42,066 bases of DNA from a virus (lineage: Duplodnaviria; Heunggongvirae; Uroviricota; Caudoviricetes), in IMG/VR virus record IMGVR_UViG_2579778919_000006, positions 1-42,066 of that record; one strand, 5' to 3'. Each line of letters starts with the position of its first letter. The first letter of the stretch is position 1. Of the stretch, positions 3,335 through 28,517 are shown piece after piece. Below the pieces are notes generated by a model, which saw only the letters and a list, made by a program, of their open reading frames with translations, searched no databases and was not told the DNA's origin. The position numbers and the translations under genes are program-made.

Positions 3335-6300
3335 TTATGAGTAAGTAAACGATCCAGAACCTCTTGTTACAATCATTGTTGGACTTCTTAACCATCTATT
3401 AGTAGCACCCTCCTTAAATACGATTTTTGCAGTTACAGTTTCCGCAGTAACACCTTTAAAAGTGGCCATAACTGTACCAGACGTGGACAACATGCCGCCT
3501 TCCGTATTACGAACGGATGTGCCTGCGAATGCGCTTTTAGTAACACCATTCACGGTAATTTCCACCCCTAGTAACATCCCTGGATATTTAGGAACACCAG
3601 AAAGGTTAGCCATGACTGTGATGGTCTTAGTTGTATTAGCCGTATCCTTATAAGTGATTGTACGTGTCATATCGTACGTGCCACCTTCGCCGTATAAATC
3701 GTCAGCAACACCCATGTTGCATACATCACCAATAAAACTAGTAGCTTCTACAGTCCCTTTGAACTTACCGCTTGTTGCTTGTATCTCACCAGTAAATCTA
3801 CCGTCACTAGCATATACTACACCTCTGACGGTCACATTGTTGAATTCAGCATCTCCAGCTTTATTCAACTTCCAACCAGCAGAACCAGCTGCATAGTTGT
3901 TGGACTGGATGTAATTGCCGATTTTGGCGTTCTCAATGGTGCCGTCCTGGATGAAACTGGCCCGGATGAATGTCTGCCCGTTCTGGATCACGAACGGCAA
4001 AGCCACGCTGTTTCCGGCTGCCGTGGTGACGGCGAAGCGGTCAGCCAGGAAGATAACCTGCGACTGCATGCCGGATGGCGTATTCTCCACGCCGATCCCC
4101 ATCCCCGCGGCGTAATACTGACCGTTGCTGGAAACGCCAACCTTGATGTTATACATCGCGCTGAGGTCGCCATTAACGTTGGCTATCGCCTGAGCATTAG
4201 TGGTGATGGCTGAGGTATGCCCGTTCACCGTCGCCGTGATGCTGTTTACCTGCGTGGCCATAGCCTGCTGGTAATCGGAGAACGTCTGGTTCAGGCTGTT
4301 GATGGATGCCTTGTTGCTGTTAACGTCCGTCTGCAGGCTCAGCAGCGAGCGCGCCGTTGCCTCCCTGTCGTTGACAATCACCTCATCAATACGGTCCAGA
4401 TTCGCGCTGTTGCCGGCGACCGATGCAGACAACGTTTTACGCGCGGCTACCTGCGCCAGGTTGCCCTGAATAATTGCGATAGCAGAGTTCTTCACCCCGC
4501 CCGTCATGCCGTCCATAGACACGCTGATGCTGTCTATTCGCTGGCCCAGTGCGGTATCAGCAGTCGCAACAGTCTGCTCAAGCTCTGAGAGAGAAGACGA
4601 CACATCACCGACCGTGCTCGAAAGCTCATTAACACTGGTCTGAACCTGCCCAATGTCCTGCGCGTTTTTTGCGATTTCCTGCGCCTGGAGCTCAAGTTCA
4701 TCGTTGGCCTGTTTGATGTCGTCAGCCATGCCAGCAATTTTTTCGTTGCTGTCCACCGCGTTCTCGATCAGGTCTTTGAACGTATCGGAGTCTTTCATGT
4801 CCTCCAGGATTGCATCGGTGATATCGGATACATCGATGCTGGCCTGCCCGCGCACAAAGTCTGTATACCCTGATTCGTTTCCGCTGCGGTCCACCAGCTG
4901 CGCGCGGTACCAGAAAATTTGCCCAGCCTTTAGGCCCATCTGCTGATATTTGCGCTGCGGGTAAGGCACATCGGCCAGCAGCATGGCATCGTCTTCAGTA
5001 CCGGTCAGGCTGTACTGAATTTCAGTCTTCAGCGTGTCGTCGGTATTCGCCTGGAATCTCCAGTTCAGCTCGATACCGAACACCACGTTTTCAGAGGCGA
5101 TAAAGCCAACCGGCTTCGGTGGATTGCCCACTTTACCCGTCAGCGTTTTCTCTTCTGAATAGCCCCATCCGGATGAAATTTCTGCGGCATTGATTGCGCG
5201 CACCCGCACCAGGTAGCGCCCGGCATAAATCCCCGGGACGTCGAATGACGTGGTGGAGGTGCGCGGCACGTTAACCCAGTTCCCGTCGTTGCGGCGCCAT
5301 TGCGCTTCATAGGCGATAGCGTTCTGCGCCTGGTCCCAGCTCACGCGCATTGTTTCGACGCTGATATTTTGCTGAACCACGGAAAACGAGCTGATCACGA
5401 TATTCGCAGGCGGCGACTGGTTGCCCGGCGGGATCACGCTCACCGGCCGTTGGTCAATGATGGCTCCGGTATCGATACGGGCATATTTATCCGGGTCGTG
5501 CCATGCGCCGGTAATCGAGAAAGTGCCATCATTGTTATCGGAAACGCTGACAACACGATACTGCTGCGCGTAAAGCTCGTCAGATTCAACCACCCAAACA
5601 GCTTCGGCCTGTGGCGTCTCACTGTATGCCGTGGTGACTGTGACTGATTCCCCGTTCACGGCCTGAATGGTCCTGCTCTGCGACGCTCCGGAAGGCAGGT
5701 TGAGAATAAGGCGATCACCTGGTGCTGCATCAGCTACGCGGTCAAGTTTGATAACGCGACCGTTAACGGCGCTGATGCGGCCGCCCATAACCTTTCCGGA
5801 AAGCAGCTCGTCTGCCACGGCGATGATGTAGCCCGGCTGCGGAATGTTTCCGTCCAGCCCGACATCAAACGAAACAACGCGATCCTTGTTATTGGTGAGA
5901 ATACCCCAGCGCCCCTTTCGGTTCGCCTCTGACTGCCTGGTGCAGCCGATGGCTGTCATTTCCAGCTGATTGAAGCCGTACCGCGCCACCAGCGCCTGCT
6001 CAAATACCGGCTCCATCGCGTCGGCATAAGCGTTACCCGGGTCTGACCATGAAACCAGCGCTGTGGTGTAGCGGCTTTTCGTGGTGCTGCTCGAATAGGT
6101 GAAGCGACCGCCAACAACGTTAGCGCGCGTATAGCTGTAATCAACATCGCGCGGCATGTCAGCCAGGGCCACAATCTGATCCCCGCCCCAGTAGGTCATG
6201 CCACGGAAGATAGCGGCAAAATCACGCAGGACTGTGTAGGCGTCGTTCCGGTCCTGAATGTACACGTTGCAGGTATAGCGTGGTTCTGTACCGTTGCCCC

Positions 6301-7279
6301 CTTTGCCGTCTGGTACCATCTGATCACAATACTGAGCAACCTGATAAAGCGTCCATTTATCAATATTCGCAGCGGTCAAACGGTGCCCAAGGCCGAACCG
6401 GTCAGAAACAACCAGGTCGTAAAAAATCCACGCAGGGTTATCCGTCCATGCCCACTTAAACGCACCGGTCCATGTACCGCTATAAGTGCGGGTTTCAGGG
6501 TCGTAGGTATCTGGAACGCGGATAACGCGGCCGCGCGGTTCGCATGAAATTTGAGGAATAGAGCCGTTGAACTGGCTTGAGTCGAATTCGACGTAGAGCA
6601 GCGCGGTGTTCGGGTAGCGCAGTTTGGCGTCAATCACCTCGGTGAAGCTCTGCAGCATCATCGTGTCGCCGATCTTCGCGCTGTTGGCGTCAGAGGTAAT
6701 CTTACGCAGACGTATTGTCCATGTGCTGCCAGCCTGCGGTAAATCGATACGGTGGCTGCGCTCATAACCAGACGTCGTTTTGCCGGTCACGCTGGTATTG
6801 AGTACCGTCTGCCATGTGCCGCCGTCAGTCTGCAGGTCAATCGCATAATTGACCGAGTAACCCACCAGATCGCCGTCGTCTTCCTGTTTGAAAAGCGAGG
6901 GCCATTTAAGACGCAGGCGAACTGCTGAAAGCTGCGTATTGGTAAACGTGCGCGTCCAGGCTGTGGCACTTGATACCTCAGTTCCTACGCTGATCTCGTT
7001 TTCGGTACCGGGAATACCCTGAATATATTTTTGCGCCTGCGTTCCCGCGCGAAACTCCCACGTTACCCCGCTGAAGTTTTGGGAGCCGTCAGCATTCTCC
7101 AGCGCTGTTCCGTCCAGGTAGATATCTTTGCCGGTGAGCTGTCCAGCAAACTCCCCTTCCCCAAGCGCAACGAGGATTTTTGCCTTCGCTACAGATTGCA
7201 GATCATCAGGCTGTTCGGTAGGGGTTCGGGAACTTGAGCTGCCGCCCTTGCGGCCTTTTAACACTTTATCTGTAGCCAT
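3335..7279 (-). CDS. J: tail tip / host specificity protein J
   Basis: 1314 aa; N-terminal and central regions resemble lambda gpJ as I recall it; gene order after I; long divergent C-terminal region. Confidence 0.9.
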   Translation of the reverse strand: MATDKVLKGRKGGSSSSRTPTEQPDDLQSVAKAKILVALGEGEFAGQLTGKDIYLDGTALENADGSQNFSGVTWEFRAGTQAQKYIQGIPGTENEISVGTEVSSATAWTRTFTNTQLSAVRLRLKWPSLFKQEDDGDLVGYSVNYAIDLQTDGGTWQTVLNTSVTGKTTSGYERSHRIDLPQAGSTWTIRLRKITSDANSAKIGDTMMLQSFTEVIDAKLRYPNTALLYVEFDSSQFNGSIPQISCEPRGRVIRVPDTYDPETRTYSGTWTGAFKWAWTDNPAWIFYDLVVSDRFGLGHRLTAANIDKWTLYQVAQYCDQMVPDGKGGNGTEPRYTCNVYIQDRNDAYTVLRDFAAIFRGMTYWGGDQIVALADMPRDVDYSYTRANVVGGRFTYSSSTTKSRYTTALVSWSDPGNAYADAMEPVFEQALVARYGFNQLEMTAIGCTRQSEANRKGRWGILTNNKDRVVSFDVGLDGNIPQPGYIIAVADELLSGKVMGGRISAVNGRVIKLDRVADAAPGDRLILNLPSGASQSRTIQAVNGESVTVTTAYSETPQAEAVWVVESDELYAQQYRVVSVSDNNDGTFSITGAWHDPDKYARIDTGAIIDQRPVSVIPPGNQSPPANIVISSFSVVQQNISVETMRVSWDQAQNAIAYEAQWRRNDGNWVNVPRTSTTSFDVPGIYAGRYLVRVRAINAAEISSGWGYSEEKTLTGKVGNPPKPVGFIASENVVFGIELNWRFQANTDDTLKTEIQYSLTGTEDDAMLLADVPYPQRKYQQMGLKAGQIFWYRAQLVDRSGNESGYTDFVRGQASIDVSDITDAILEDMKDSDTFKDLIENAVDSNEKIAGMADDIKQANDELELQAQEIAKNAQDIGQVQTSVNELSSTVGDVSSSLSELEQTVATADTALGQRIDSISVSMDGMTGGVKNSAIAIIQGNLAQVAARKTLSASVAGNSANLDRIDEVIVNDREATARSLLSLQTDVNSNKASINSLNQTFSDYQQAMATQVNSITATVNGHTSAITTNAQAIANVNGDLSAMYNIKVGVSSNGQYYAAGMGIGVENTPSGMQSQVIFLADRFAVTTAAGNSVALPFVIQNGQTFIRASFIQDGTIENAKIGNYIQSNNYAAGSAGWKLNKAGDAEFNNVTVRGVVYASDGRFTGEIQATSGKFKGTVEATSFIGDVCNMGVADDLYGEGGTYDMTRTITYKDTANTTKTITVMANLSGVPKYPGMLLGVEITVNGVTKSAFAGTSVRNTEGGMLSTSGTVMATFKGVTAETVTAKIVFKEGATNRWLRSPTMIVTRGSGSFTYS

Positions 7280-7291
7280 ATTGCGCCCATA

Positions 7292-7315
7292 AAAAAGCCA
7301 CCCAAAGGTGGCTAC
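7292..7315 (-). terminator. intrinsic terminator 13 nt upstream of the J start codon
   Basis: perfect 7-bp stem agccacc-caaa-ggtggct followed on the minus strand by TTTTTTAT. Confidence 0.5.
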
Positions 7316-7444
7316 TGTCTGAATATCAGGATGTTACAAATCTAAATACCTGGTTATGTTGTGGATTCAGCCCGCCAGCGGTGGGACGCTGGTGAACTCA
7401 TAACAGGTGGAATGGCTGATTACCTCTGGAAAAAGGAGAAGTAA

Positions 7445-7705
7445 ATGGGTTCGATGTTAGAACTGGAAAAAGAAGTGGCAGAGCTTAAACAAAAGCTGCT
7501 TACGCATGAAATTGCAACTGGCCTGATTCTATCGGACATTGTGAAATTACTGGACATTGCCCGGCCAGGCGCACTCGATGCTCTGACTAAAAACTATCAG
7601 GCAGGGCAAGCAAAAATCCCAGAATCAGCTGCACGTAATGATCCGCACACAATTGATGCGTTCACGCGCATCCTTAAAGTTTTAGAGGTGGCATCAAAGA
7701 AATAA
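7445..7705 (+). CDS. hypothetical protein, antisense moron inside the tail operon
   Basis: 86-aa ORF with AAGGAG Shine-Dalgarno 6 nt before ATG; predicted helical; converges on and overlaps the 3' end of the minus-strand ORF at 7674-7991. Confidence 0.4.
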   Translation: MGSMLELEKEVAELKQKLLTHEIATGLILSDIVKLLDIARPGALDALTKNYQAGQAKIPESAARNDPHTIDAFTRILKVLEVASKK

Positions 7706-7991
7706 TTAAATCGAGCTTTTCATTGAATATTTCTTCATGAGTTTTAGCGGCCTCATTCTGGGCCGCTGTTACCGTTCCACCGAAAACCCCTGCATCACCC
7801 TGCGAAATCTTTCCCTCCTTTACTCGCAAACTCCAGCCATTACCGGTGATGGTCGAATGAATAGCGCCACCTGGCCGTAGTGCGTTCTGAATGGCGGAAT
7901 TGACGATTGCCGGGTTATGCAGCTCTGCTATCTCCACCTGCAGGCTCGCGATGGTTGCCTCAAGCATGCTCATGCGCTCTTCTAAAGTCAT
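7674..7991 (-). CDS. hypothetical protein between tail genes I and J
   Basis: start re-set to the ATG with GGAG Shine-Dalgarno (track ORF extends to 8093); coiled-coil-like N-terminus then IVNSAIQNALRPGGAI, a motif shared with the C-terminus of the 24747-25367 ORF. Confidence 0.45.
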   Translation of the reverse strand: MTLEERMSMLEATIASLQVEIAELHNPAIVNSAIQNALRPGGAIHSTITGNGWSLRVKEGKISQGDAGVFGGTVTAAQNEAAKTHEEIFNEKLDLIISLMPPLKL

Positions 7992-8028: not shown

Positions 8029-8619
8029 TTACTGTTGATCTTCGACATAAATTCCGGCAGAAATAATCGCTCCGCCGATTCGACGCTTACCATAAAGCAG
8101 AGGCACTGGGTAGCCTTGCGCTGCAGTGTTGGTTACCCCGCCAAACGCATACGATGCACGGTTATCTGCACTTTGTTTGCTGGCCAGCCCCGCTGGTTGA
8201 GGGGAAAGCATCTGAACAACCCCGCCAATCATCATTGCGGCACCGAATTTGTATAAGAATGGTGATGCCGCAGCCCAGGGTGTGAAATTAAGCACCGCCC
8301 CAACGGCAACCAGAACTGCACCAAGTATTGTCTGGAGTAATCCGGCCTTTTTGCTCCCGATAATCACCGGGACAATGCGAATGACATCGCCGGTGACCGG
8401 GTAACCCAGGTCATCAACTCCTATGTTTTTCTTTCCTTTAAAAATGGCAAAGGTTAGTCCGCGGCGCTTGCTGTTTACCATATAACTTTCAAACCCGGTG
8501 ATTGTTTTTGCGAGTGCTACACCTGCTTCAGAAACTTTACTGATAAGTCGCCAATGAGTTTTACCAAATATTTTACCGGGTTCGCCGCCGAGCTCAATTC
8601 GAGTCATTGCTTCAGACAT
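8029..8619 (-). CDS. I: tail assembly protein I
   Basis: 196 aa with RIVPV...GGVVQMLSPQP...YGKRRIGGAIISAGIYVEDQQ, the gpI pattern as I recall it. Confidence 0.8.
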   Translation of the reverse strand: MSEAMTRIELGGEPGKIFGKTHWRLISKVSEAGVALAKTITGFESYMVNSKRRGLTFAIFKGKKNIGVDDLGYPVTGDVIRIVPVIIGSKKAGLLQTILGAVLVAVGAVLNFTPWAAASPFLYKFGAAMMIGGVVQMLSPQPAGLASKQSADNRASYAFGGVTNTAAQGYPVPLLYGKRRIGGAIISAGIYVEDQQ

Positions 8620-8677: not shown

Positions 8678-9091
8678 TCAAAATGCTGTAGGGTAGATAC
8701 CAAAATCACCGTTGGTTCCGTAACCAACTCTAAACATCAAAACCCCAGTATCTGTCACCTTACCCGACTGTTCGCTCATGCCTCCGCCACACATACCTTT
8801 GGGCCAAGCGCTAAAGATATGATCTCCAATTTTGGGATAGACCGTTACCTTTTGAGCTGTATCTAAGTCTGCGACCTCCTTGCCATCAACATAAACTCGG
8901 GTCATGCAGGCGCTGCCCATAAAACCAGAGTCTCGTTTGATTATTACCTTGCCAGTCCCTTCTTTTTTTACTAGCAGTGTATTGCTGATAACCTGTTTTG
9001 CAGGAACATCCTGTGCTTGTTCATTTGTCACCGGCTTAGTTGCACAACCGGCAACCATTAAGATGGAGGTAAAAACTAAAATTCTTTTCAT
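8678..9091 (-). CDS. predicted lipoprotein (moron)
   Basis: start re-set to MKRILVFTSILMVAGC, a lipoprotein signal peptide with lipobox and Cys; about 137 aa; no family recognised. Confidence 0.55.
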   Translation of the reverse strand: MKRILVFTSILMVAGCATKPVTNEQAQDVPAKQVISNTLLVKKEGTGKVIIKRDSGFMGSACMTRVYVDGKEVADLDTAQKVTVYPKIGDHIFSAWPKGMCGGGMSEQSGKVTDTGVLMFRVGYGTNGDFGIYPTAF

Positions 9092-9179
9092 ATCCCTATC
9101 CCCTTTGGTCAATTTTGCCAAAAGAGTAGCAGGGATCGAGCGGTAGCAAAACCGAATGTTATCTTGGTTCACGCGCCCT

Positions 9180-9689
9180 TTAAATACCGGGGAGATACAT
9201 CTGTACTTCATCAGCTACACGCTCCCGTGCTGTGTGTAGAAGCCGCTTGCGGCCACCAACACCCCACTTGGCCATCTGGCTGGCGCACTGGCTGATCGCT
9301 TTGGTTTCGGTGTTAATCACATGGTCGATTTTATTCAAGCGAGACATGGCATCGAACCCGCGACGCATTAGCATTTGAAATGTCTCATAGACTTTGATTT
9401 CAAAAAGCGGATTGAGCCAGGCTGCATAGCGTATAGCGATAAGTTCAAGCCCCCAGGAGCCCTGAAATGGTCCCCCCTTAATTGTCATAACCGATGCGAT
9501 TTTCTTCGCATCGCTCAAGGCTTGAACAAATCGCCTTACTTGCTTGGTTTTGAGAAACTCACCTGGTCGCTGTGATTCAGTGGCTTTGCCTTCAGCCACC
9601 GCTGCGGCGTGGAGATCATTAAGATTATAACGTCCTTCGTTATCGACACGAACTGATACGCCGTTTACAGATACGGTTGGATATTGCAT
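9180..9689 (-). CDS. KilA-N domain protein
   Basis: N-terminal VNGVSVRVDNEGRYNLNDLHAAA...GSWGLELIAIRYAAWLNPLFEIKV fits the KilA-N DNA-binding domain pattern; C-terminal half unassigned. Confidence 0.6.
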   Translation of the reverse strand: MQYPTVSVNGVSVRVDNEGRYNLNDLHAAAVAEGKATESQRPGEFLKTKQVRRFVQALSDAKKIASVMTIKGGPFQGSWGLELIAIRYAAWLNPLFEIKVYETFQMLMRRGFDAMSRLNKIDHVINTETKAISQCASQMAKWGVGGRKRLLHTARERVADEVQMYLPGI

Positions 9690-9830
9690 ATCGGATTACC
9701 TTTTAGTGATGAACCTTGTCGCACAGGAAAACGGCCCCAAGAAGGCTCCGACAGCCAGCCGGTTCCTCAAGGTGCATCCTGAAAGGTTCTTGGTTTGAAT
9801 TGCGCGTGCGGTGCGCGGTGAAATGCGGGG

Positions 9831-9854
9831 TTTAAAAAAACCCACCTGAGTGGG
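9831..9854 (-). terminator. intrinsic terminator immediately after K
   Basis: stem cccac-ctga-gtggg followed on the minus strand by TTTTTTTAAA, directly after the K stop codon. Confidence 0.55.
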
Positions 9855-10565
9855 CTATAGAAGCGTTTTATATCTGACGATCTTCATCGTCCTTTCCTGC
9901 CAGTAGCCACCATACGGCACGCGCTGGCTCAGATGTCCGTACAGGTGGTGCAGCAGCATATTTCCCTCCAGCAGAATTCCCGCGTGGTTCCACTTATCAG
10001 CCTGGACCTGCATGATCACCATATCGCCGGGTTTCGGTGGCCCGTCGAATTCCCGGAAACCGCACTCATACCAGCAATCCTGATAGAAGTTGTCCGGATA
10101 TTCGTTTTCCCACCAGGGATAATCAACCCGGTAATCGTGGAGTTCGATACCATGCGTTTGCCGAAAATAGCTCATTACCAGCCCCCAGCAGTCGAAGTGT
10201 CCAAGCACAAACGGACGCTCCAGCAGCGGCAGTTCTCCGCGCGGCTGGATGGTGCGTAAATCCCCCTCCGGCCAGCTCACAATATGCCAGGGTAAAAGCG
10301 TTGCGTCGCATTGCGCTTTATCCAGTTCGCTCGGTTGCGTTGTGGCGTCAGGGTGACTGTGAACGATGGCGATCACCGTACCCCAGTCCTCAGCAGCGGC
10401 ATAGTCTTCTGGCGACAGGTGAAAATGTTCTGTCGGCTCGGTAGCGAGGTTACTACATGGAAAATATTTCTCTACCCGGCTCTTTTGCGCCACCACGCCG
10501 CAACACTCACGAGGATATTCAGCTGCAGCATGCGCCATAATCGCATCGATGGTTTTCTGACGCAT
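9855..10565 (-). CDS. K: tail assembly protein K (MPN/JAMM plus NlpC/P60 domains)
   Basis: HSHP motif and C-terminal Cys/His-containing segment; position between L and I. Confidence 0.85.
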   Translation of the reverse strand: MRQKTIDAIMAHAAAEYPRECCGVVAQKSRVEKYFPCSNLATEPTEHFHLSPEDYAAAEDWGTVIAIVHSHPDATTQPSELDKAQCDATLLPWHIVSWPEGDLRTIQPRGELPLLERPFVLGHFDCWGLVMSYFRQTHGIELHDYRVDYPWWENEYPDNFYQDCWYECGFREFDGPPKPGDMVIMQVQADKWNHAGILLEGNMLLHHLYGHLSQRVPYGGYWQERTMKIVRYKTLL

Positions 10566-11671: not shown

Positions 11672-14188
11672 TTACCTGCGATTGTTCGCATTCCAGATAA
11701 GCCCACCGGGCTGGATTGCCCTGGCGATACCATCGTTGACAGATTTGTTAATCACCTGCTGATACGCCTTACCCAGCCTGTCTCCGTCATTTTGCTGCTG
11801 TGCGCCACCGGAGGCATTCTCGACGGTCACAGGCGCGTACACGCTCACCCCGAAAGGTGCTGCAGCGGGACCTGTGCCACTGCCCCCGACAAGCCCTCCT
11901 GTGGCGTACCCTTTCATCATCCGGTAAAGGTTGCCGACGCCGATCCGACTGGTAGCCTCTTTGGTGAAAACAAATTCGCCACGGTGAACGACACCTGCGG
12001 GTTCATATTTCCCACCCGAACCGGTGAATCCCCCGCTGGCAAACCCCAGCGCCGTGGAGGCTGAATCTACCAGTCCGGTCATTGCCTGCTTCAGCAGAAT
12101 TTGTGTCAGCATGGAGAGCGTGGAGCGGGTAAAGTCAGCCCAGTCAGCCTTTCCGCGTGTCAGCATGTCTGCCATATTCTGCCCGATGCCATCAAACGTA
12201 CTGGTGGCAACCGACTTCATCTGGCCATAAGCATCTGAAGCGGAATCAACATAATCTGCCCATGCGGATTTGGCCCCGGATTGCCAGTCGTCCCGCAGCT
12301 TATCCTGCTCGGCGTAATACGCCTGCAGCGCCTGCAGCTCATTCTGATAACCAGCGTCGTTCTCCGAACCGCCACCATTTTTCCAGCCCTGAAGAAGCTG
12401 GGCCTCCTCATTGCGGCGTTGTGCTGCACGACTGCTCATACCAGCACTTTCCGCAAGGGCTCGGGTTTTCTCGCCGATCTGCGTGACGTATTTTTGGGAC
12501 GTATCCTGCAGGCGGTTAAGCCGCTCCTGCGCCACTATCTGATCGCCAAGCTTCGCATTCAGCTCCGCACGGGAAAGCACCTCACTTTTACTGGCCAGCA
12601 GGGATTTTTCCTCAGCAGAAAGCGTTCGGGTCTTCGCGGCCTCTTCCAGAACCGTAAAGCGGGACTGCTGACGCCACAGCTCCTGACGCTGCTGGCTGAT
12701 GGTGTCATTGATGCTCTTATGCTCCTGCAGGGTGCGCAGCTGTGTCTGTAGCTCCAGCGTCTGGGCACTGGCCGTATCGGTGGCACGGGCACCTGCGGGG
12801 GTTCTGATTGCCGGGGTCTTCTTCGGCTTTTTAAGGGTGTCTTCGTACTCTTTTTTCGCGGCAGCCAGGTTGATGTTGTAGTCAGCCTGGAGGATCCGCC
12901 CCTCTTTCAGCGCCTTGTTGAGCTCGCTCTGCCTGGCCGTGTATTTCTCCAGTGCCGTCTGCGTTTTGGCATAGTTTGCCTGTGCCTGCGCAGCATACTT
13001 CTGGCGATCCGATTCCGCAGCCGCTTCGCGCGATGCATTCTCTTCGTTCGCCCTGGCAATTCCCGCCTGCTGCTGCGCCATATCCAGCGCAAGCCTGGCC
13101 GTTTCGCGGTCATTCCAGAATCGGGCGCGAGCCTCATCATTGACATATCGGTCACCTTTACGCAGGTTCCAGATTTCATCAGCTTTTTTGAACGCGGCTT
13201 CGGCTTTTGCCACCATCTCCTGCGCGGTGTCAGGTCGGCCAATATCGAGGGCTGCATCCCACATCGACTTGAAGGCGCGCTTCAGGGAGTCCGCTGAAGA
13301 CTCTATCGTCCCCATATTGTCGCGGATGGCTTTGGTCTGATCGTTGAATCCGGCTGTAGCCGCCTCGTTAGCCGCCTGCAGTGCGCCAGCCTCATCACCG
13401 GCACGCTGCAGCTGCGCCACATGGGCAATCTGTTCTGCGGTAACGTTATGGAACTGCTGGGCCATCGCGATCAGGCCCGATGTCGGGTCAGTTGCGAGCT
13501 TGCCGTAGGCTGCAGCGACTTTCTCCACCGGCACGCCGGAGGCATCAGTAAACCGCGCCACCGCCTGGCTCATTTCATCAAAGCGCGAGCCAGTACGCAC
13601 ACCTGCATTGATAAGCTCGGTCAGGGCTTCACTGGTCTGGTTGAACGTTAGCCCCGCTGCCTGTCCGTTCCGCGCCAGTGCCAGCATGCGGTCAGCTGTC
13701 AGTCCGGCTGTGTTCCCCGACAGTACCAGCGTTTTGTTGAAATCAGACAGAGTGGAAGAGCCCTGGTACCAGGCATAGAACAACGCGCCCGTTGCAACGG
13801 ACAATGCACCAATGCCGACCATCAACGGGGAAATCGTCCCCAGCAACGCCCGGAATGTCGGAATGATCCCGCCAAAGGAGTCCTTAACCTGACCGCCCTG
13901 CTGAAGCAGAATCAGCCAGGGGTTCTGCCCACCCGCCAGCTGCGTGGCCACGTCAGTAAACTGCGCCGGGAGCATACGCATCGCTGCGTTATACTGACCC
14001 ACTGAAATACCGGCCTTACGCGCGGCGTTCTCCTGGCGGCTGAAGGACTGCTGGATACGTAACGCTTCATCGTTTGCCGTATTGCCGGTCTGTTTTAATT
14101 CTTTTTTGACGTAGCTGAGCTGCTCGTTGAATTTTGTCGAGTTAACGTCAAGGTTAACGACCAGATCACCGACTGCCGTCTGAGCCAT
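11672..14188 (-). CDS. H: tail tape measure protein H
   Basis: 838 aa, long helical Ala/Gln/Glu-rich protein after the G-T pair. Confidence 0.85.
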   Translation of the reverse strand: MAQTAVGDLVVNLDVNSTKFNEQLSYVKKELKQTGNTANDEALRIQQSFSRQENAARKAGISVGQYNAAMRMLPAQFTDVATQLAGGQNPWLILLQQGGQVKDSFGGIIPTFRALLGTISPLMVGIGALSVATGALFYAWYQGSSTLSDFNKTLVLSGNTAGLTADRMLALARNGQAAGLTFNQTSEALTELINAGVRTGSRFDEMSQAVARFTDASGVPVEKVAAAYGKLATDPTSGLIAMAQQFHNVTAEQIAHVAQLQRAGDEAGALQAANEAATAGFNDQTKAIRDNMGTIESSADSLKRAFKSMWDAALDIGRPDTAQEMVAKAEAAFKKADEIWNLRKGDRYVNDEARARFWNDRETARLALDMAQQQAGIARANEENASREAAAESDRQKYAAQAQANYAKTQTALEKYTARQSELNKALKEGRILQADYNINLAAAKKEYEDTLKKPKKTPAIRTPAGARATDTASAQTLELQTQLRTLQEHKSINDTISQQRQELWRQQSRFTVLEEAAKTRTLSAEEKSLLASKSEVLSRAELNAKLGDQIVAQERLNRLQDTSQKYVTQIGEKTRALAESAGMSSRAAQRRNEEAQLLQGWKNGGGSENDAGYQNELQALQAYYAEQDKLRDDWQSGAKSAWADYVDSASDAYGQMKSVATSTFDGIGQNMADMLTRGKADWADFTRSTLSMLTQILLKQAMTGLVDSASTALGFASGGFTGSGGKYEPAGVVHRGEFVFTKEATSRIGVGNLYRMMKGYATGGLVGGSGTGPAAAPFGVSVYAPVTVENASGGAQQQNDGDRLGKAYQQVINKSVNDGIARAIQPGGLIWNANNRR

Positions 14189-21853: not shown

Positions 21854-22056
21854 ACGTAAAACCCTGCTGGCCCCCGGCGTCGTGATGTGGTGCCAACCTG
21901 AGATTCAAGGTCAGTAATATATTTTTTGAGATCGCTGACTGAAGTGGCTGTAAATTCCACTCTTCGACCGTCTTTCTGTACCGTCGCCACGCGCTTTCCC
22001 ATCATCAGGTCATGTAACGCAGCGCGCGCGGCATCCAGTTCAGTCTGTGTTGCCAT
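21850..22056 (-). CDS. W: head-tail joining protein W
   Basis: 68 aa, gpW-like, between A and B. Confidence 0.85.
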
Positions 22057-23978
22057 TATTCATCTCCAGATAATGCCCGCGCGTAATCCGCCAGGGTCTT
22101 GTTATTGTTACGGCTGCCTTCTTCCTCCAGCAGGCTGGCCAGAAGTGAATCAAGATTTAGCTGCCAGCGGGATATGCTTATACGCAGCGCCGCCAGTGCA
22201 TAAACAAAGCAATCGAGCGCCTCATTTCGTCGTTTTTTGCTGTCCCAGACGATCTTTTTCTTTCCGTCTACCCATTTTTCCACCTGCTCTTCAGCTGTTA
22301 GTTGTTGGGCCTCTGTTAGATCGTAGATTTCTGGGTTATTCGGGAAATGAACCGCTCCCGCCAGCGGCTCGTCTCTTTGCGCCACCAGCGTGAAACGGTT
22401 ATAAATCTGCTCTTTTGCGGTGTCTGTTCCTACCTCTGTGAGGTAAACACCATTCTTGTTACGCTTGCGTGGCATGTTCGCCACTGGCTTTCCATAAACC
22501 GACGCCCCCTTTATAGGGATCACACGAAACAGACCGTGTTTTTTTGAGCGGTTGTAGACGATGGTGGGATCAATGCCGCCAATATCCCAGCAAGTGCGGG
22601 ATATAACCATTTCGAGACCGTTCTGGCGCTTATACGTCCTGTTGATCGCTTCATCAACTCGAGCGAGAGTCGACTCATCATCATGACGACCCATAATGAT
22701 AATTTTGTCGATAAGCCAGCTTTCCTCTCCCGGCCCCCATCCCCAAACACGCATTTCGTAACGGTCAAGCTGGGAGTCAATACCCGCTGTCAGATATGCC
22801 ACTCGCTCCGGCACAGACGCTTCAAAGTGCTCTTTTCGTTCCGCTAAAACTTCAGCATCGGGTCGTTCACCTATTTTCGGTTCCCACGTTTCGCCCAGGG
22901 TCGTGTTAACGAAAGTTTTTCGCTTACCCGTATCACCTTTTGTTTTTATCCAGTCCTTGACGATCTGCACCCAGGTTGTGAACGGGCTATATGCGGTCCA
23001 GATGTGGAATGTAACGCTGTCAGGAGGTTCAATTTCGGTACCGGATGAAGAAAACCAGTTAAGGCCGTCTCGTGTCCAGATACCTGTTTCATCACAAATA
23101 TACCTGGCCTCCAGAAATTCCAGCTCCTGTTGTTTAATCACACAGGCATTGTGTTCACAGAGGTAGTAAACGCTGGCAGGTTCTCCCGGAGACCATTTGA
23201 AGCCAAATGGTGTCTCTTTATCACCGAATTTCAGATACTGCTCTTCCCCACAGTGTGGGCATGGAACATGGAACCGAAGAAAATGTTCAGACTCCTTAGC
23301 AGCTCTTTCTATCTGGCACGTACCTTTGACTTTCGGTGTAGATCCGCGAATGGATTTCGGCCATACAGAACCCTCAATACGCTTATCACCCAGAAAGGTG
23401 GGAGAACCTTCTTTCTCGATGTCATCATCGAAAGCGGCGAGCTCGTCGTAGCCAGCCACATCAACTGATTTTTCACGGTAGTTTTTTGCAGCCTTACCGC
23501 CCAGGCACCAGAAACCACGACCATTCGAGAAACGCTTCATGCTCAGCGTATTGTCCCGATGTTTTTTACCGTACCAGGGAGCAAGCGCCAGCAACGTCGG
23601 AATATCACGAATGGTCGGTTCTACATGAGACTTCATGAAGTTTTCAGCATCACCGTCGGTTGGTAACCATATTAGGGAGTTACGCTGTTTATGTTGGATG
23701 AAATATGCGTAAACGCCGAGCAACATTTTTGAGTAGCCGACACGAGCCGATTTAACGACATTCACCTCGCGAATATAGTCATTACCCATCGCATTCATAA
23801 TTGCACGCTGAAATGGCAGTGTTTCCCAGCGCCCTTCCTGGTAGGCAGACTCTTTCGGGAGATAATAATTCTCATCTGCCCATTCAACTGCTGTTTGCGG
23901 TTGCGGCCGGTACAGCGAACGTAACCCCGCCCGCGCAGAGTGCTGCAGCCCCTTAACCTGACTGTTCGATATATTCAC
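22056..23978 (-). CDS. A: terminase large subunit A
   Basis: 640 aa starting [11 protein letters not shown], near-collinear with lambda gpA as I recall it. Confidence 0.95.
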
Positions 23979-24498
23979 TCAGCAACCCCGGTATCATTTC
24001 ATCCAGCGCAGCTGCCTTGTTCATGGCCTTAATGATGTCCTTCTTGAGGAAATCAATATGTCGGTTCTCCAGCTCCGGGAAGCGCCGCTGAACCGACAGA
24101 GGTATTCCATCGAGAATGCTGGCGATTTCTCCGGCTACCCGCGACAGCACGAACGTGCAGAATGCGGTCTCCACCACTTCAGCGGACTCTTTTGCATTTT
24201 TTAATTCCTGAGCGTCAGCCTGAGCTCGCGTAAGTCGGTGTCGCTCATATTCAATCGTGCCAGGTTGAAGATCGGACTCAGAAGCGATACGGAGATCTTC
24301 AACTTCCTTCCGCAACTTTTCATTTTCTATAGCTGCATCGCGCGCACTGTACCATTCGATTGCAGCAGCAGATTCAAAGAGAACCTCATTACCTTTGCCA
24401 CCACCGCGGACAACCGGCATACCTTGCTCCTGCCAGTTCTGAATCGTTCGGACGCTTACCCCGAAAATTTCGGATAAGCGTTTTTTGTTAACCTCCAT
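23953..24498 (-). CDS. nu1: terminase small subunit Nu1
   Basis: MEVNKKRLSEIFGVSVRTIQNWQEQGMPV, winged-helix N-terminus as in lambda Nu1; overlaps the A start. Confidence 0.9.
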   Translation of the reverse strand: MEVNKKRLSEIFGVSVRTIQNWQEQGMPVVRGGGKGNEVLFESAAAIEWYSARDAAIENEKLRKEVEDLRIASESDLQPGTIEYERHRLTRAQADAQELKNAKESAEVVETAFCTFVLSRVAGEIASILDGIPLSVQRRFPELENRHIDFLKKDIIKAMNKAAALDEMIPGLLSEYIEQSG

Positions 24499-24700
24499 GG
24501 CTTACTCCTGGCAAAAAACAGAGAAAGGAAACAATCAACGGTAAACTTCCGTTTTCCTTGCTCAGCATTTCCTTTCTGGAGAGAGGACGTTTTTAACAAA
24601 AACAATGAGTAAACAAGAAGAAGAACGGAAATGGCATAAACCAGAAAATTTTCATAAATAGCGAGAATCTGCGCGGACGCCGCCCCGTAACATGTCGGAT
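24499..24700. other. cos: cos site (cosB and cosN; predicted cohesive-end sequence at about 24674-24685)
   Basis: minus-strand sequence GGGCGGCGTCCGCGCAGATTCTCGCTATTTATGAAAATTTTC...TTTCCGTTCTTCTTC...GTTTCCTTTCTCTGTTTTT parallels lambda cosN-cosB as I recall it, directly upstream of Nu1. Confidence 0.8.
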
Positions 24701-24746
24701 AACCGGAAAGGACCCGCGGCCCCCTGGGTGTCCCTGAGGGGGAGCA

Positions 24747-25367
24747 TCAACGCCCTCTTTGTTGAACCCATATTGCACCTCCAGGCTTTAGCGCGTTGCG
24801 GATTGCATCGTTTACAGCATCGTGCATCGCTTGTTTCAGGCCGGTGAGTGAGGCTGTTTGTGCATCGATATTTACTTGTATTGCCGTGAGCAGATCGCTT
24901 TCACGTACAGCATCAATGACGGCCTGCGTCATTTCATCGCCAAGCTTAAACTTCACCTTCGAGGCTGATACCACGGCGTTTCCGACGGTTGATCGAGCGG
25001 CTTCATTTACCTTCAAGGATTCAGCTTTAAACTCGGCCTTTCTTTGCCCATCTTCAACTCCAACAGCCATACCGGCAGCGTGCTCTATGCCATTATTGTT
25101 GATATTCAACTTCACGTTATAGTTCGCAGATACAATGCCACTACCAATAAAGGCATCTTTGATAAAGACCTTGCCATCTTTGACGCCAATAGCCCATCCC
25201 GTGGCTTTATCTTCTGTTACTCGTTCAATGCGGAAACTGAATGGACTCTTTTCATAAAGCCCCATGGCAATCGTTCTTTTCCCATCACGATCATAACGGG
25301 CTGTATACTCAGCCGTTTGAAGCTCATGGCCATCGTCACGTAATATGAGCACCATATCTTTATTCAT
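24747..25367 (-). CDS. hypothetical protein with segments resembling the distal region of J
   Basis: start re-set to MNKDMVLIL (AGGAAA Shine-Dalgarno); ANYNVKLNINNNGIEHAAGMAVGVEDG and KVFIKDAFIGSGIV resemble J segments AMYNIKVGVSSNGQYYAAGMGIGVEN and TFIRASFIQDGTI; C-terminus AVNDAIRNALKPGGAI. Confidence 0.5.
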   Translation of the reverse strand: MNKDMVLILRDDGHELQTAEYTARYDRDGKRTIAMGLYEKSPFSFRIERVTEDKATGWAIGVKDGKVFIKDAFIGSGIVSANYNVKLNINNNGIEHAAGMAVGVEDGQRKAEFKAESLKVNEAARSTVGNAVVSASKVKFKLGDEMTQAVIDAVRESDLLTAIQVNIDAQTASLTGLKQAMHDAVNDAIRNALKPGGAIWVQQRGR

Positions 25368-25528
25368 TTTTTCATTTCCTTTTAGACGTGAGCCTGTCGC
25401 ACAGCAAAGCCGCCGAAAGTTAACGGTTTGCCCAGGCTCACAACTGAAAGACTTTCTACGGTGTGCGCGTGCGATGCGCATAAAAAAGCCCCGCATAAGC
25501 GAGGCTAAATATCGAACAACTTCTTTTG

Positions 25529-25750
25529 TTAACTGCGCGTGAAGTTGTGGTGGATGAAGTCGTCAGAGCCTAACCGATGTGAGCCATAATGGGCTTCATA
25601 GCCCTCACCTAGTGAGGCTGCCTTAGTTTCGGCCACATCTTTGGTGGCGTAAACACCGACTAAATGCCACGGGGCATTCCTTACAACCCCCCACCCCATA
25701 ACCCAACCTATATTATCAAGGTCAGGCTTCAAGCCTTCTGCAACAAACAT
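25529..25750 (-). CDS. hypothetical small protein
   Basis: AAGGAG Shine-Dalgarno before the ATG for MFVAEGLKPD; 73 aa; no family recognised. Confidence 0.4.
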   Translation of the reverse strand: MFVAEGLKPDLDNIGWVMGWGVVRNAPWHLVGVYATKDVAETKAASLGEGYEAHYGSHRLGSDDFIHHNFTRS

Positions 25751-25809
25751 ATTTATCTCCTTTGGGTACCCGGAGATAATGCTAAGCAATTGAAGCTGCA
25801 AAATAAATA

Positions 25810-26055
25810 CTATTCAACAAGCTCTGCTGTAATTGTTAACCAGCTCAAATCAGGCCGATCATGCATCACATGTACAGCTGATTCATCAACATCGACAGCG
25901 TAAATTTTAGTGAAGGGATGGGAAGCTTTACCGGATAAAGAATCCTTCACTATCACACTTTCATTCTGAATAACCTGGAATGTGACGTTTGCGGCTCGAA
26001 CAATACCCTCGTAGTGCTCTTCAAGGTGAGCAATTGTAACTTTAACTTTTTTCAT
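25810..26055 (-). CDS. hypothetical small protein
   Basis: AAGGAG Shine-Dalgarno before the ATG for MKKVKVTIAH; 81 aa; no family recognised. Confidence 0.4.
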   Translation of the reverse strand: MKKVKVTIAHLEEHYEGIVRAANVTFQVIQNESVIVKDSLSGKASHPFTKIYAVDVDESAVHVMHDRPDLSWLTITAELVE

Positions 26056-26162
26056 AGGCTGGCTCCTTGGCTGAATGGCAACAGGCATTAGGTGAGTGTC
26101 TGCTGTAACGCCTATCCCTTAGCGGGGATAATGGTTGCTTTATCCCTTGCTAGGGATAAAGA

Positions 26163-26678
26163 CTATTGACGCTCGCTCTCTATTTGACGAATTCCAGCGA
26201 AATTGTTATTGCCCTTTTCAATCACGGCCAGCAGCGGCTTAATCCAGAGCACAGCCTGGCAGTACGTTATTGAGCCGGCGGCAGCGGTACTATCATCGGC
26301 TGCGTCAGGTCCGTCGGTATCGGCGTGCATTGCGCTGGAACGTAAACGGTACGCGTATTCGAGCAGCCCACCAGCAATGTCAGCAGGAACAGGCAGATCA
26401 CAGGTTTTTTCACGGCGGAGAATCTCCCGGTATTCGATTACAGTTTCTTCGGTGCTGGTGTCGATCAGGGAGTTTAGCCTGTTGGCATGTTCTGCAACCT
26501 GATTGAATCGATTGAAGTTGAATGCCTGGGTGGCGATCACCTGCCCCTGCATAGAGTTGTCACTTCGCAGAACGTCGTTATCGCTCTGAAGGCGACTGGC
26601 GTTGGAGCAACTCTTAGCGAGAGCGACCGAAAGGACAGCAATAACAACAACGCCTATAAGACCCGGATTAATTTTCAT
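26163..26678 (-). CDS. Rz-like inner-membrane spanin
   Basis: N-terminal transmembrane segment INPGLIGVVVIAVLSVALA then a helical periplasmic part; start overlaps the endolysin stop; an embedded Rz1-like ORF was not resolved. Confidence 0.6.
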   Translation of the reverse strand: MKINPGLIGVVVIAVLSVALAKSCSNASRLQSDNDVLRSDNSMQGQVIATQAFNFNRFNQVAEHANRLNSLIDTSTEETVIEYREILRREKTCDLPVPADIAGGLLEYAYRLRSSAMHADTDGPDAADDSTAAAGSITYCQAVLWIKPLLAVIEKGNNNFAGIRQIESERQ

Positions 26679-27594: not shown

Positions 27595-27743
27595 AATGAG
27601 TTGACTATTTGTAAGGTAGGTGTGAGTAAGACTTATGCTCAGAGGTGAAGCTGTATCGGCTGATTCACTATCGGTCCAGGAGAACCACCGGGCATTCAGT
27701 TACTTCCCACAACTCAAAGCGTAGCAGCAGTTTGCAAAACCAT

Positions 27744-27771
27744 AAAAAAAGGCCTGCGTTTAATGGCAGGC
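27744..27771 (-). terminator. intrinsic terminator in the late leader
   Basis: 6-bp stem gcctgc/gcaggc followed on the minus strand by T7. Confidence 0.55.
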
Positions 27772-27988
27772 TCTCAAGGAATTTGAAACTTGTATTGTAG
27801 TTGTCATGGTGCCGGGTGCCTCCCGGTGACTCTACTCCAGCCAGCAAAGTCGCGCGCATACCTGCAGATAGCAGTTGGCTGGAACGCCCTTTCGCTTAGA
27901 AAGGATTCACCACAGAAATAAATTACGCCGAACTTATTCCTGCAGTCAATGAGATTAGCCATTGCTTCCTGATGGTTGTCTTACAAAT

Positions 27989-28208: not shown

Positions 28209-28283
<75 letters not shown>

Positions 28284-28286
28284 ATA

Positions 28287-28362
<76 letters not shown>

Positions 28363-28364
28363 AG

Positions 28365-28438
28365 TGGTCCGCCACCGGAGCCTCGAACCCCGTACCACAA
28401 CACCTGGGTTGCCGCTCTTCCCGATGAGCTAGTGGCGG
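28365..28438 (-). tRNA. tRNA-like element, anticodon unresolved (possible degenerate tRNA)
   Basis: acceptor, D and T arms fold (T-loop TTCGAGG, 3' ACCA) but the best anticodon-arm pairing GCAAC/GTTGT leaves a 6-nt loop. Confidence 0.45.
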
Positions 28439-28440
28439 TC

Positions 28441-28517
28441 TGGTGGCCCTTGCTGGACTTGAACCAGCGACCGGGCGATTATGAGTCGCACGCTCTAACC
28501 AACTGAGCTAAAGGGCC
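28441..28517 (-). tRNA. tRNA with CAU anticodon (Met or Ile2-lysidine type)
   Basis: reverse complement GGCCCTTTAGCTCAGTTGGTTAGAGC...; anticodon loop CTCATAA; T-arm GGTTCAAGTCC; 3' CCA. Confidence 0.75.

Follow-up and report, generated by a model that had tools for sequence, protein, structure and literature searches.

The DNA considered here is a lambdoid E. coli prophage of 42,066 nucleotides (hereafter the window), and its positions 24600–25520, the only region queried, are 100% identical to NZ_LR536431.1. On the minus strand of this region lies an open reading frame (ORF) for a protein of 206 amino acids, which the RefSeq/PGAP annotation of NZ_LR536431.1 calls with identical coordinates and names 'phage tail tip fiber protein'. 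A preliminary description of the window had put this gene between the lysis cassette and cos, and the placement holds, with cosN located at about 24675–24686 by alignment with the phi80 sticky end. Since the lysis genes and cos flank it, the ORF is the final gene that the late transcript covers ahead of cos. Farther upstream, three tRNA genes (28212–28517, minus strand) precede the lysis cassette, and an Rfam STnc100 match upstream of the lysis genes (27740–27946, minus strand, 53 bits) is probably a late-promoter leader RNA. The features discussed below are collected in Table 1.

Table 1. Genes, protein parts and RNA elements discussed in the text; positions refer to the window unless a contig is named
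Feature	Position	Strand	Evidence, identifier or remark
206-aa ORF	24747–25367	minus	WP_024262612.1, PHROG 29765
Residues 1–56, swappable family-specific N-terminal domain	25200–25367	minus	alignment, N-domain survey, AF2
Residues 57–133, units like the J central straight fibre	24969–25199	minus	BLASTP, Pfam, family HMM
Residues 140–206, helical region with heptad pattern	24750–24950	minus	HMM, profile comparison, AF2
Intrinsic terminator, immediately upstream of the leader	25487–25506	minus	
Structured leader (5' hairpin, anti-SD/SD pairing, long hairpin between)	25365–25481	minus	covariance model, 121.8 bits
Second, diverged leader copy	9689–9818	minus	covariance model, 45.8 bits, E 1e-8
Segment swapped relative to phage mEp237 (ORF plus 29 nt)	24718–25369	minus	
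Nu1	23953–24498	minus	
A	22056–23978	minus	
H	11672–14188	minus	
C-terminal 30 residues of H, YQQVINKSVNDGIARAIQPGGLIWNANNRR	11675–11764	minus	profile search, hhalign
M		minus	
L		minus	
K	9855–10565	minus	
KilA-N gene	9180–9689	minus	
Lipoprotein gene	8678–9211	minus	
I	8029–8619	minus	
105-aa ORF between I and J	7674–7991	minus	PHROG 22477; BLASTP, HMM
86-aa convergent partner ORF	7445–7705	plus	PHROG 23209; overlaps 3' end of 105-aa ORF
J	3335–7279	minus	
J residues 1037–1116, central straight fibre units homologous to the 206-aa protein	3932–4171	minus	BLASTP, Pfam, HMM
Fibre gene	1077–2516	minus	
Leader copy in contig L012	1–41		
Leader copies in contig L144	35742–35857 and 37719–37849		
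Glycosyltransferase-like locus, contigs L003–L005	5635–7337		
Glycosyltransferase-like locus, contig L144	33505–34962		SP016_00200
Glycosyltransferase-like cargo 'MQVTIDGV...', contigs L023, L028 and others			

The 206-aa ORF is a genuine, intact accessory gene encoded among the late genes, and the unit of insertion comprises an intrinsic terminator, a structured leader and the ORF. Phage mEp237 and the window are 99.9% identical up to 2 nt before the ATG and 98% identical from 29 nt past the stop codon; on this alignment, the replacement covers precisely the ORF, with the leader on one side and the cos-side flank on the other. In HK639, the leader and the N-terminal half of the gene are 89.6% identical to the window and the 3' part about 76%, a drop that points to recombination within the gene. 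Recombination was probably anchored by the leader and the 3' half of the gene, both of which are conserved. Terminators are annotated on either side of the HK639 homologue.

The leader is about 115–135 nt long and widespread in temperate enterobacterial phages: 49 GenBank phage records have it, about half of them with 90–99% identity over the ~115 nt before the ATG, and it is also present in at least 120 IMG/VR viral contigs. Its consensus consists of a 5' hairpin, a long hairpin and a helix joining (U/C)CUUU to AAAGG in the ribosome-binding site. In an alignment of 42 distinct copies, itself fitted to the model, pairing holds in 95.8% of cells and in 26–57% when the partners are slid; nine pairs show double changes, and none of 500 shuffles reached the observed values, which come from few lineages. 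No Rfam family matches the leader. The covariance model finds two copies in the window, of which the second has a terminator before it and the KilA-N gene directly after it, within the insert between K and I. That insert (8678–9855, minus strand) is made up of the terminator, the leader, the KilA-N gene and an overlapping lipoprotein gene (phrog_890), whose product could be a Cor-like exclusion protein. The distance from the leader to the start codon is constant, and the gene that follows belongs to the 206-aa family, to Rha-like genes (about 50 of 132 copies), to KilA-N genes or to a few others. Phages phi80 and FSL SP-016 carry two copies each, one of those in phi80 standing before rha.

The leader is 80–91% identical to E. 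coli copies in Aeromonas phage AsXd-1 (MH178096.1) and Elizabethkingia phage EKP1 (OM284015.1). In AsXd-1, a family member and HK97-like enterobacterial genes accompany the leader, which is 91% identical although the protein is only 35% identical. Either the host assignment of these two phages is doubtful or the transfer was recent. A coding role for the leader, through an in-frame ATG at 25496 that would extend the ORF, was rejected because leader variants differ by 17 and 22 nt and this ATG falls within the terminator hairpin.

A consensus scan of 24400–26200 found no sigma-70-like site, which leaves room for a weak or unusual promoter. We infer that the gene is transcribed within the antiterminated late transcript and that the leader gates its translation. 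Translation would probably be held off until the long hairpin is opened or cut, and RNase III is the obvious candidate for cutting it and freeing the ribosome-binding site. Rha expression is harmful when unregulated.

The preliminary description had also claimed that segments of the protein resemble J at about nt 3900–4150 and stand in a changed order, and both claims were borne out. BLASTP aligns residues 77–128 with J 1037–1092 (39% identity, E 1e-7) and a second motif, residues 62–101, with J 1098–1134 (E 0.08), and a family HMM built without the window's own 206-aa sequence matches J 1036–1090 at 2.8e-13 and J 1094–1116 at 2e-3. Pfam PF09327 matches residues 77–133 with 26.7 bits (gathering score 22 bits; E 5.3e-6) over profile positions 14–74 of 139, and it also matches 69 of 100 representative relatives. 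The profile is only partly covered, and its unit at positions 69–94 stands upstream instead, so the native order is not kept. In J, 'PFVxxxGQxFIxxAxI' comes after 'YNIKV..AGMGIGV..ADRFAV'; in the 206-aa protein it comes first, as a B-like unit 'GWAIGVKDGKVFIKDAFIGSGIV' followed by the A unit 'ANYNVKLNINNNGIEHAAGMAVGVEDG...'. The swapped order is seen by Pfam's own model in the relative P0106, residues 182–207 of which match profile positions 69–94. A simple circular permutation of J was rejected, as B-A-helix is not a cyclic permutation of helix-A-B; extra stacked beta units are the more likely explanation of the order. Farther on, the family HMM finds a likeness between the helix EMTQAVIDAVRESDL and DITDAILEDMKDSDTF, where the alpha-helical bundle of J begins.

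The source of the shared units is thus the central straight fibre of lambda gpJ (PF09327 Phage_Tail_Tip, formerly DUF1983; PDB 8XCJ, 8IYK). Both proteins have 'Y.[IV]K......G....AGM..GV' and 'G..FI..A.I..G.I', and 'ADRF.V', which is degraded in the window copy (AESLKV), is kept in relatives. Unlike gpJ, the 206-aa protein has about half of the PF09327 domain, with the units reordered, and in this member it has no hub, no FNIII domain and no receptor-binding domain; it measures 206 aa against 1314 and is encoded outside the tail cluster. The N-terminal hub domains FNIII-A_GpJ and Phage-tail_3 are absent from this short protein (J proteins exceed 1000 aa), and neither BLASTP nor the HMM finds similarity to J past residue 1134, the C-terminal receptor-binding domain included. 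It is important to note that low-complexity bias does not account for the resemblance: with the family profile as query, the 528 six-frame ORFs of the window that have 40 or more codons yielded only four at E <1e-3, namely the gene itself, J, the ORF at 7674–7991 and H. These alignments reflect homology between the modules of the 206-aa protein and those of the tail-tip apparatus.

In lambda, the central straight fibre of J is a three-chain beta-prism that is preceded by an alpha-helical bundle (PMC11101478). As judged from the alignment, the shared J piece is this trimeric beta-prism shaft together with a stretch like the alpha-helical segment, and not the C-terminal receptor-binding domain. 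Where tail-tip or receptor-interaction domains had been proposed, the tail-tip origin therefore stands and receptor interaction is without support.

The C-terminus had further been said to match the protein encoded at 7674–7991. It does so: residues 167–199 align with residues 44–78 of ORF 7674–7991/8093 (E 2e-6), and the family HMM matches this ORF at 1.2e-7. A second alignment, of residues 57–84 with residues 86–113 of the ORF, has E 8e-5, and the two segments stand in swapped order relative to the 206-aa protein. The 105-aa ORF carries the helix-'NALRPGGAI' module and the 'GWSLRVKEGKI' unit in common with the 206-aa protein; its helix-PGG is internal and is followed by a 'GW.L.v.eGki' unit of the kind that follows the straight fibre in J. 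The protein is rare (4 clusters). ORFs of this type are always accompanied by a convergent ORF of 81–86 aa, and the pair is mobile among prophages, being found between I and J in the window and in a Leclercia prophage, and after the tape measure gene in contig L137. The two may form a small regulatory or toxin-like pair. In the window, the insert between I and J spans 7290–7991 on both strands, with a terminator-like intrinsic hairpin just before the J start codon. The two small genes are accessory cassettes, inserted in slots that differ from phage to phage, rather than the scattered structural set that had been suggested.

The statement that three genes share modules was correct for J and the 7674–7991 ORF and missed a fourth partner, the tape measure protein H. 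The extreme C-terminus of H is matched by the family profile at E 6.6e-5 (528 window ORFs). The corresponding part of the 206-aa protein is its last ~30–33 residues, with the terminal letters ...NALKPGGAIWVQQRGR, and the aligned ends read YQQVINKSVNDGIARAIQPGGLIWNANNRR in H and LKQAMHDAVNDAIRNALKPGGAIWVQQRGR in the 206-aa protein. Comparison by hhalign of the family with a profile of eight tape-measure C-termini (H of the window and seven other lambda-type tape measures) gave a probability of 96.3% and E 1.9e-9. The H-like end is present in six of the seven further tape measures, including those of HK639, phi80, an N15-like Enterobacter phage, a Leclercia prophage and lambda; the seventh, from AsXd-1, ends in the variant MPGSPLW. 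The location is identical, since the motif forms the extreme C-terminus both in H and in the 206-aa family. The best-conserved part of the 206-aa protein is this C-terminal '...AVNDAIRNALKPGGxxW...', and its match is the C-terminal tip-docking helix of H.

In lambda, three helices of gpH 818–849 wind into a coiled coil that sits on the gpI tripod inside the tail-tip lumen (PMC10721106), and the gpH C-terminus persists in the virion within a separate fragment of ~14 kDa (gpHC) in three copies (PMC12617516). Like gpHC, the 206-aa protein has at its extreme C-terminus a helix followed by (P/D)GG, a pair of hydrophobic or aromatic residues and a short basic tail, and its small size is similar to that of the cleaved fragment. 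Unlike gpHC, it does not belong to a long helical tape measure and has neither the Tape_meas_lam_C region nor the glycine-rich segment, its gene is a separate accessory gene outside the interval between the tail chaperone and M in which tape measure genes lie, and its docking is putative. Cleavage at the GG by the JAB domain of K, as at a ubiquitin-like processing site, was rejected because lambda virions retain an intact gpH 818–849, including DGGLF (PMC10721106, PMC12617516). Otherwise diverged lambda-type tape measures keep the terminal helix-(P/D)GG-hydrophobic-aromatic motif, which is absent in that of FSL SP-016 and may be a useful marker of gpI-type tip docking.

About 356 homologues of the 206-aa protein were found in a set of 5.8 billion proteins, mainly in prophages of Enterobacter, Salmonella and E. 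coli, and they carry the NCBI names 'DUF1983 domain-containing' or 'phage tail tip fiber protein'. A library clustered at 50% gave 186 clusters at E <=1e-3; among the 150 clusters listed, most proteins are of 100–330 aa, and a few are J proteins, which are matched in the fibre unit only. Against PHROG profiles, the 206-aa protein scores 3.3e-128 with phrog_29765 and 3.5e-32 with phrog_13555, and the family covers PHROGs 29765, 13555, 17079 and 16910, for all of which functional annotation is absent. In the alignment, the conserved part runs from '(P)Fv.kdGqVFIKDAfIG.GIVSANYNVKLNI..' through the C-terminus, and PGG is its sole nearly invariant element. The protein phi80 gp49 (ORF x171.28, 'similar to N15 gp59') can be placed by its sequence as a divergent relative, as can mEp213 gp73 and mEp237 gp62, which have the same C-terminal end; HK639 gp13 is 65% identical to the 206-aa protein, and FSL SP-016 has a gp59-like member. 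These members, close or divergent, share the leader, the slot before cos or the terminase gene and the PGGxIW end, and they differ in their N-terminal domains; in the phi80 and mEp213 members the J-like units are degenerate or absent. Searches of the literature on DUF1983, N15 gp59, rha/IHF and moron/Rha/KilA found no functional data.

These numbers bear on whether the gene is a non-functional J/H chimera left by recombination, or a chance resemblance. Its occurrence in just 1 of 5426 complete E. coli genomes and the degraded 'ADRF.V' motif speak for such an origin. Set against 356 homologues that are intact, fall into conserved length classes and keep PGG nearly invariant, and against significant E-values and a dedicated, conserved leader at constant spacing, it is scarcely credible.

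The family has the architecture, as its alignments indicate, of unrelated, swappable N-terminal domains on a constant stalk, the stalk comprising at least one J-shaft beta unit, a J-like helix and an H-like helix-PGGxxW end. All three stalk modules exist as three-fold units of the tail axis in lambda-type tails. The N-terminal domains belong to at least ten unrelated types, sometimes in tandem, and none had a Pfam match among ten relatives and 100 representatives; PADLOC and NCBIfam likewise returned nothing for them. One is an FNIII type: residues 4–116 of P0088 match J 721–837 (E 7e-8), that is, the last FNIII domain and the start of the helical segment. The other types are private to the family in the sequences searched.

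With 44 sequences, the AF2 monomer model of the 206-aa protein had a pLDDT of 52; with 124 sequences the value rose to 72, the helical C-terminal part reaching 87–97 and residues 1–30 reaching 73–82, and the J-like part still at 55–66. Residues 1–56 are predicted to form a four-stranded beta-meander. A Foldseek search of the PDB gave nothing under E 0.1, and a PDB sequence search with the protein gave nothing meaningful. The heptad register of the helical region has hydrophobic residues at 12 of 16 a/d positions, compatible with a three-helix coiled coil. Homology to obligate trimeric modules, this heptad pattern and the confidently predicted long helices together suggest that the protein is a homotrimer. 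For the J-like part, given its poor monomer model, trimerisation is suggested by homology only.

A variable end on a constant stalk is also the logic of a fibre, and the preliminary description had suggested tail-tip or receptor-interaction domains. On this view the protein would be an auxiliary virion fibre or receptor-interaction protein, a trimer that would decorate the particle and bind the host surface through its N-terminal domain. The fibre-type modules and late expression agree with this, as does the position of the family gene within the tail gene cluster in HK639 and in Salmonella prophages. However, usual fibres anchor N-terminally and vary C-terminally, the J piece is shaft and not receptor-binding domain (PMC11101478), binding and depolymerase domains known so far have no match among the N-terminal domains, the constant end is like a part of the tail-tip lumen and not of the particle exterior, and the protein is very short for a fibre. 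We consider such a role rather improbable.

The genomic slots of the family point in more than one direction. Homologues lie between the lysis genes and the small terminase gene, or between the major tail protein and tail chaperone genes, always on the late strand and with an upstream gap of ~120–145 nt, and all carriers examined are siphophages with lambda-type tips. In contig L004, a gene of the Acb2/Tad1 hairpin-domain type (3592–3876), from a family of anti-CBASS/anti-Thoeris sponges, occupies the slot between lysis and terminase genes two genes upstream of the family gene, suggesting that the slot is a hotspot of accessory and counter-defence genes. Behind the family gene in HK97-like prophages come a 75-aa gene and then a 485-aa gene annotated as glycosyltransferase-like, and another putative glycosyltransferase-like ORF is frequent cargo behind the leader; a functional link between the family gene and these genes is possible.

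The contents of the slot give weight to the explanation that the J- and H-like modules are a generic trimerisation scaffold. The stalk would then oligomerise a cytoplasmic accessory protein that makes no contact with the tail, and the work would be done by the N-terminal domain, for example in regulation, host takeover or counter-defence. Rha and KilA-N, which are of cytoplasmic DNA-binding types, as well as HNH-like and other non-structural genes, occupy the same slot behind the same leader, and the anti-defence gene of L004 lies in that slot too. A preprint reports phage proteins in which a ParB-CTPase fold, of cytoplasmic type, is fused to DUF1983 and which bind ATP (10.1101/2025.10.10.680097). 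The N-terminal domains are private to the family save for the FNIII type common to J, and the end of the small protein shows no consistent co-variation with the tape-measure end of its own phage, FSL SP-016 being a counter-example in which the small protein is present and the tape measure has no terminal motif. What a scaffold leaves unexplained is that the best-conserved element is the terminal anchor motif of the tape measure in the same terminal position, that some N-terminal domains are FNIII and helical-segment pieces of J, and that the family is seen only in phages with lambda-type tips. We rate this explanation as unlikely, though it deserves serious consideration.

The explanation we favour, at a little short of an even chance, is that the protein forms homotrimers whose H-like end engages the tail tip. 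We infer this engagement because the H-like end is the best-conserved part of the protein and is positioned exactly as in H. The stalk would make the protein homotrimeric, the H-like end would engage the gpI plug inside the tail-tip lumen, which is the site of the tape measure C-terminal fragment, and a functional head would be provided by the variable N-terminal domain. Being made late alongside J, H and I, the protein would most likely act at or in the tail tip, where it could be a tip passenger or a competitor that modulates tip assembly. From the homologies, the shared pieces are best described as shaft and anchor modules, not receptor-binding ones. Docking at the tip accords with the homology to J and H, the three-fold structures of the lambda counterparts, the predicted helices and their heptad pattern, the family architecture, the late-strand contexts, the lambda-type tips of all carriers examined, the exact swap of the cassette and the leader. 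Counting against it are the cytoplasmic types in the same slot behind the same leader, the ParB-CTPase fusions, the missing co-variation with the cognate tape measure together with the case of FSL SP-016, the poorly modelled J-like part, the PHROGs without function, and the lack of a match among PADLOC anti-phage defence profiles and NCBIfam named families. Moreover, the three docking positions of gpI in lambda are filled by the tape measure fragment, and simple co-occupancy is therefore sterically doubtful.

A more elaborate version of tip docking is a cargo system, in which the stalk, as a mimic of the tape measure, would load the trimer into or onto the tip under control of the leader, and the interchangeable N-terminal domain would be one of the first phage proteins to reach a new host, or would sabotage the tips of rival phages. 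We think this quite improbable. Conflict could also be the sole function: imitation of the J shaft and the tape measure anchor, with co-expression with J, would suit a poison subunit or assembly blocker acting against rival lambdoid phages, or a decoy for a Bil-like defence, since Bil ubiquitin-like conjugation has been reported on the central tail fibre (10.1101/2023.09.04.556158). The decoy idea is speculative because that paper gives no target region. No promoter for expression in the prophage state was found, the protein would meet its own J, H and I, and both the variable N-terminal domain and the absence of a PADLOC match fit poorly, making a pure conflict mimic very unlikely.

Compared with known accessory systems, the gene is similar to morons such as HK97 gp15 and lambda bor and lom in being a single accessory gene amid essential late genes, bounded by terminators and variable in position. 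Unlike morons, it has no autonomous promoter that we could find, its leader masks the ribosome-binding site, and the late transcript, not the prophage, is probably the source of its expression. If the 206-aa protein competes for the tip, prophage tail-assembly blockers of the Tab type are a possible functional analogue. We know of no sequence relationship between the two, and their expression logic differs.

Both the public protein name and Pfam already reflect the similarity to J. As far as the literature and databases searched show, the tape-measure-like end, the architecture of variable heads on a constant stalk and the shared structured leader have not been described. If neither docking nor control by the leader holds, the locus is a case of ordinary phage mosaicism that public annotation has partly captured. 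A strong candidate for a new cis-regulatory RNA is the leader, which would control accessory genes, among them Rha, KilA-N and the 206-aa family. No tip accessory has been described at the gpI position in lambda-type tails; if the H-like end does dock on the gpI plug, it would show that lambdoid phages add interchangeable passengers or inhibitors to their tail tips, and the C-terminal fragment of the tape measure would gain a defined, transferable 'address' function.
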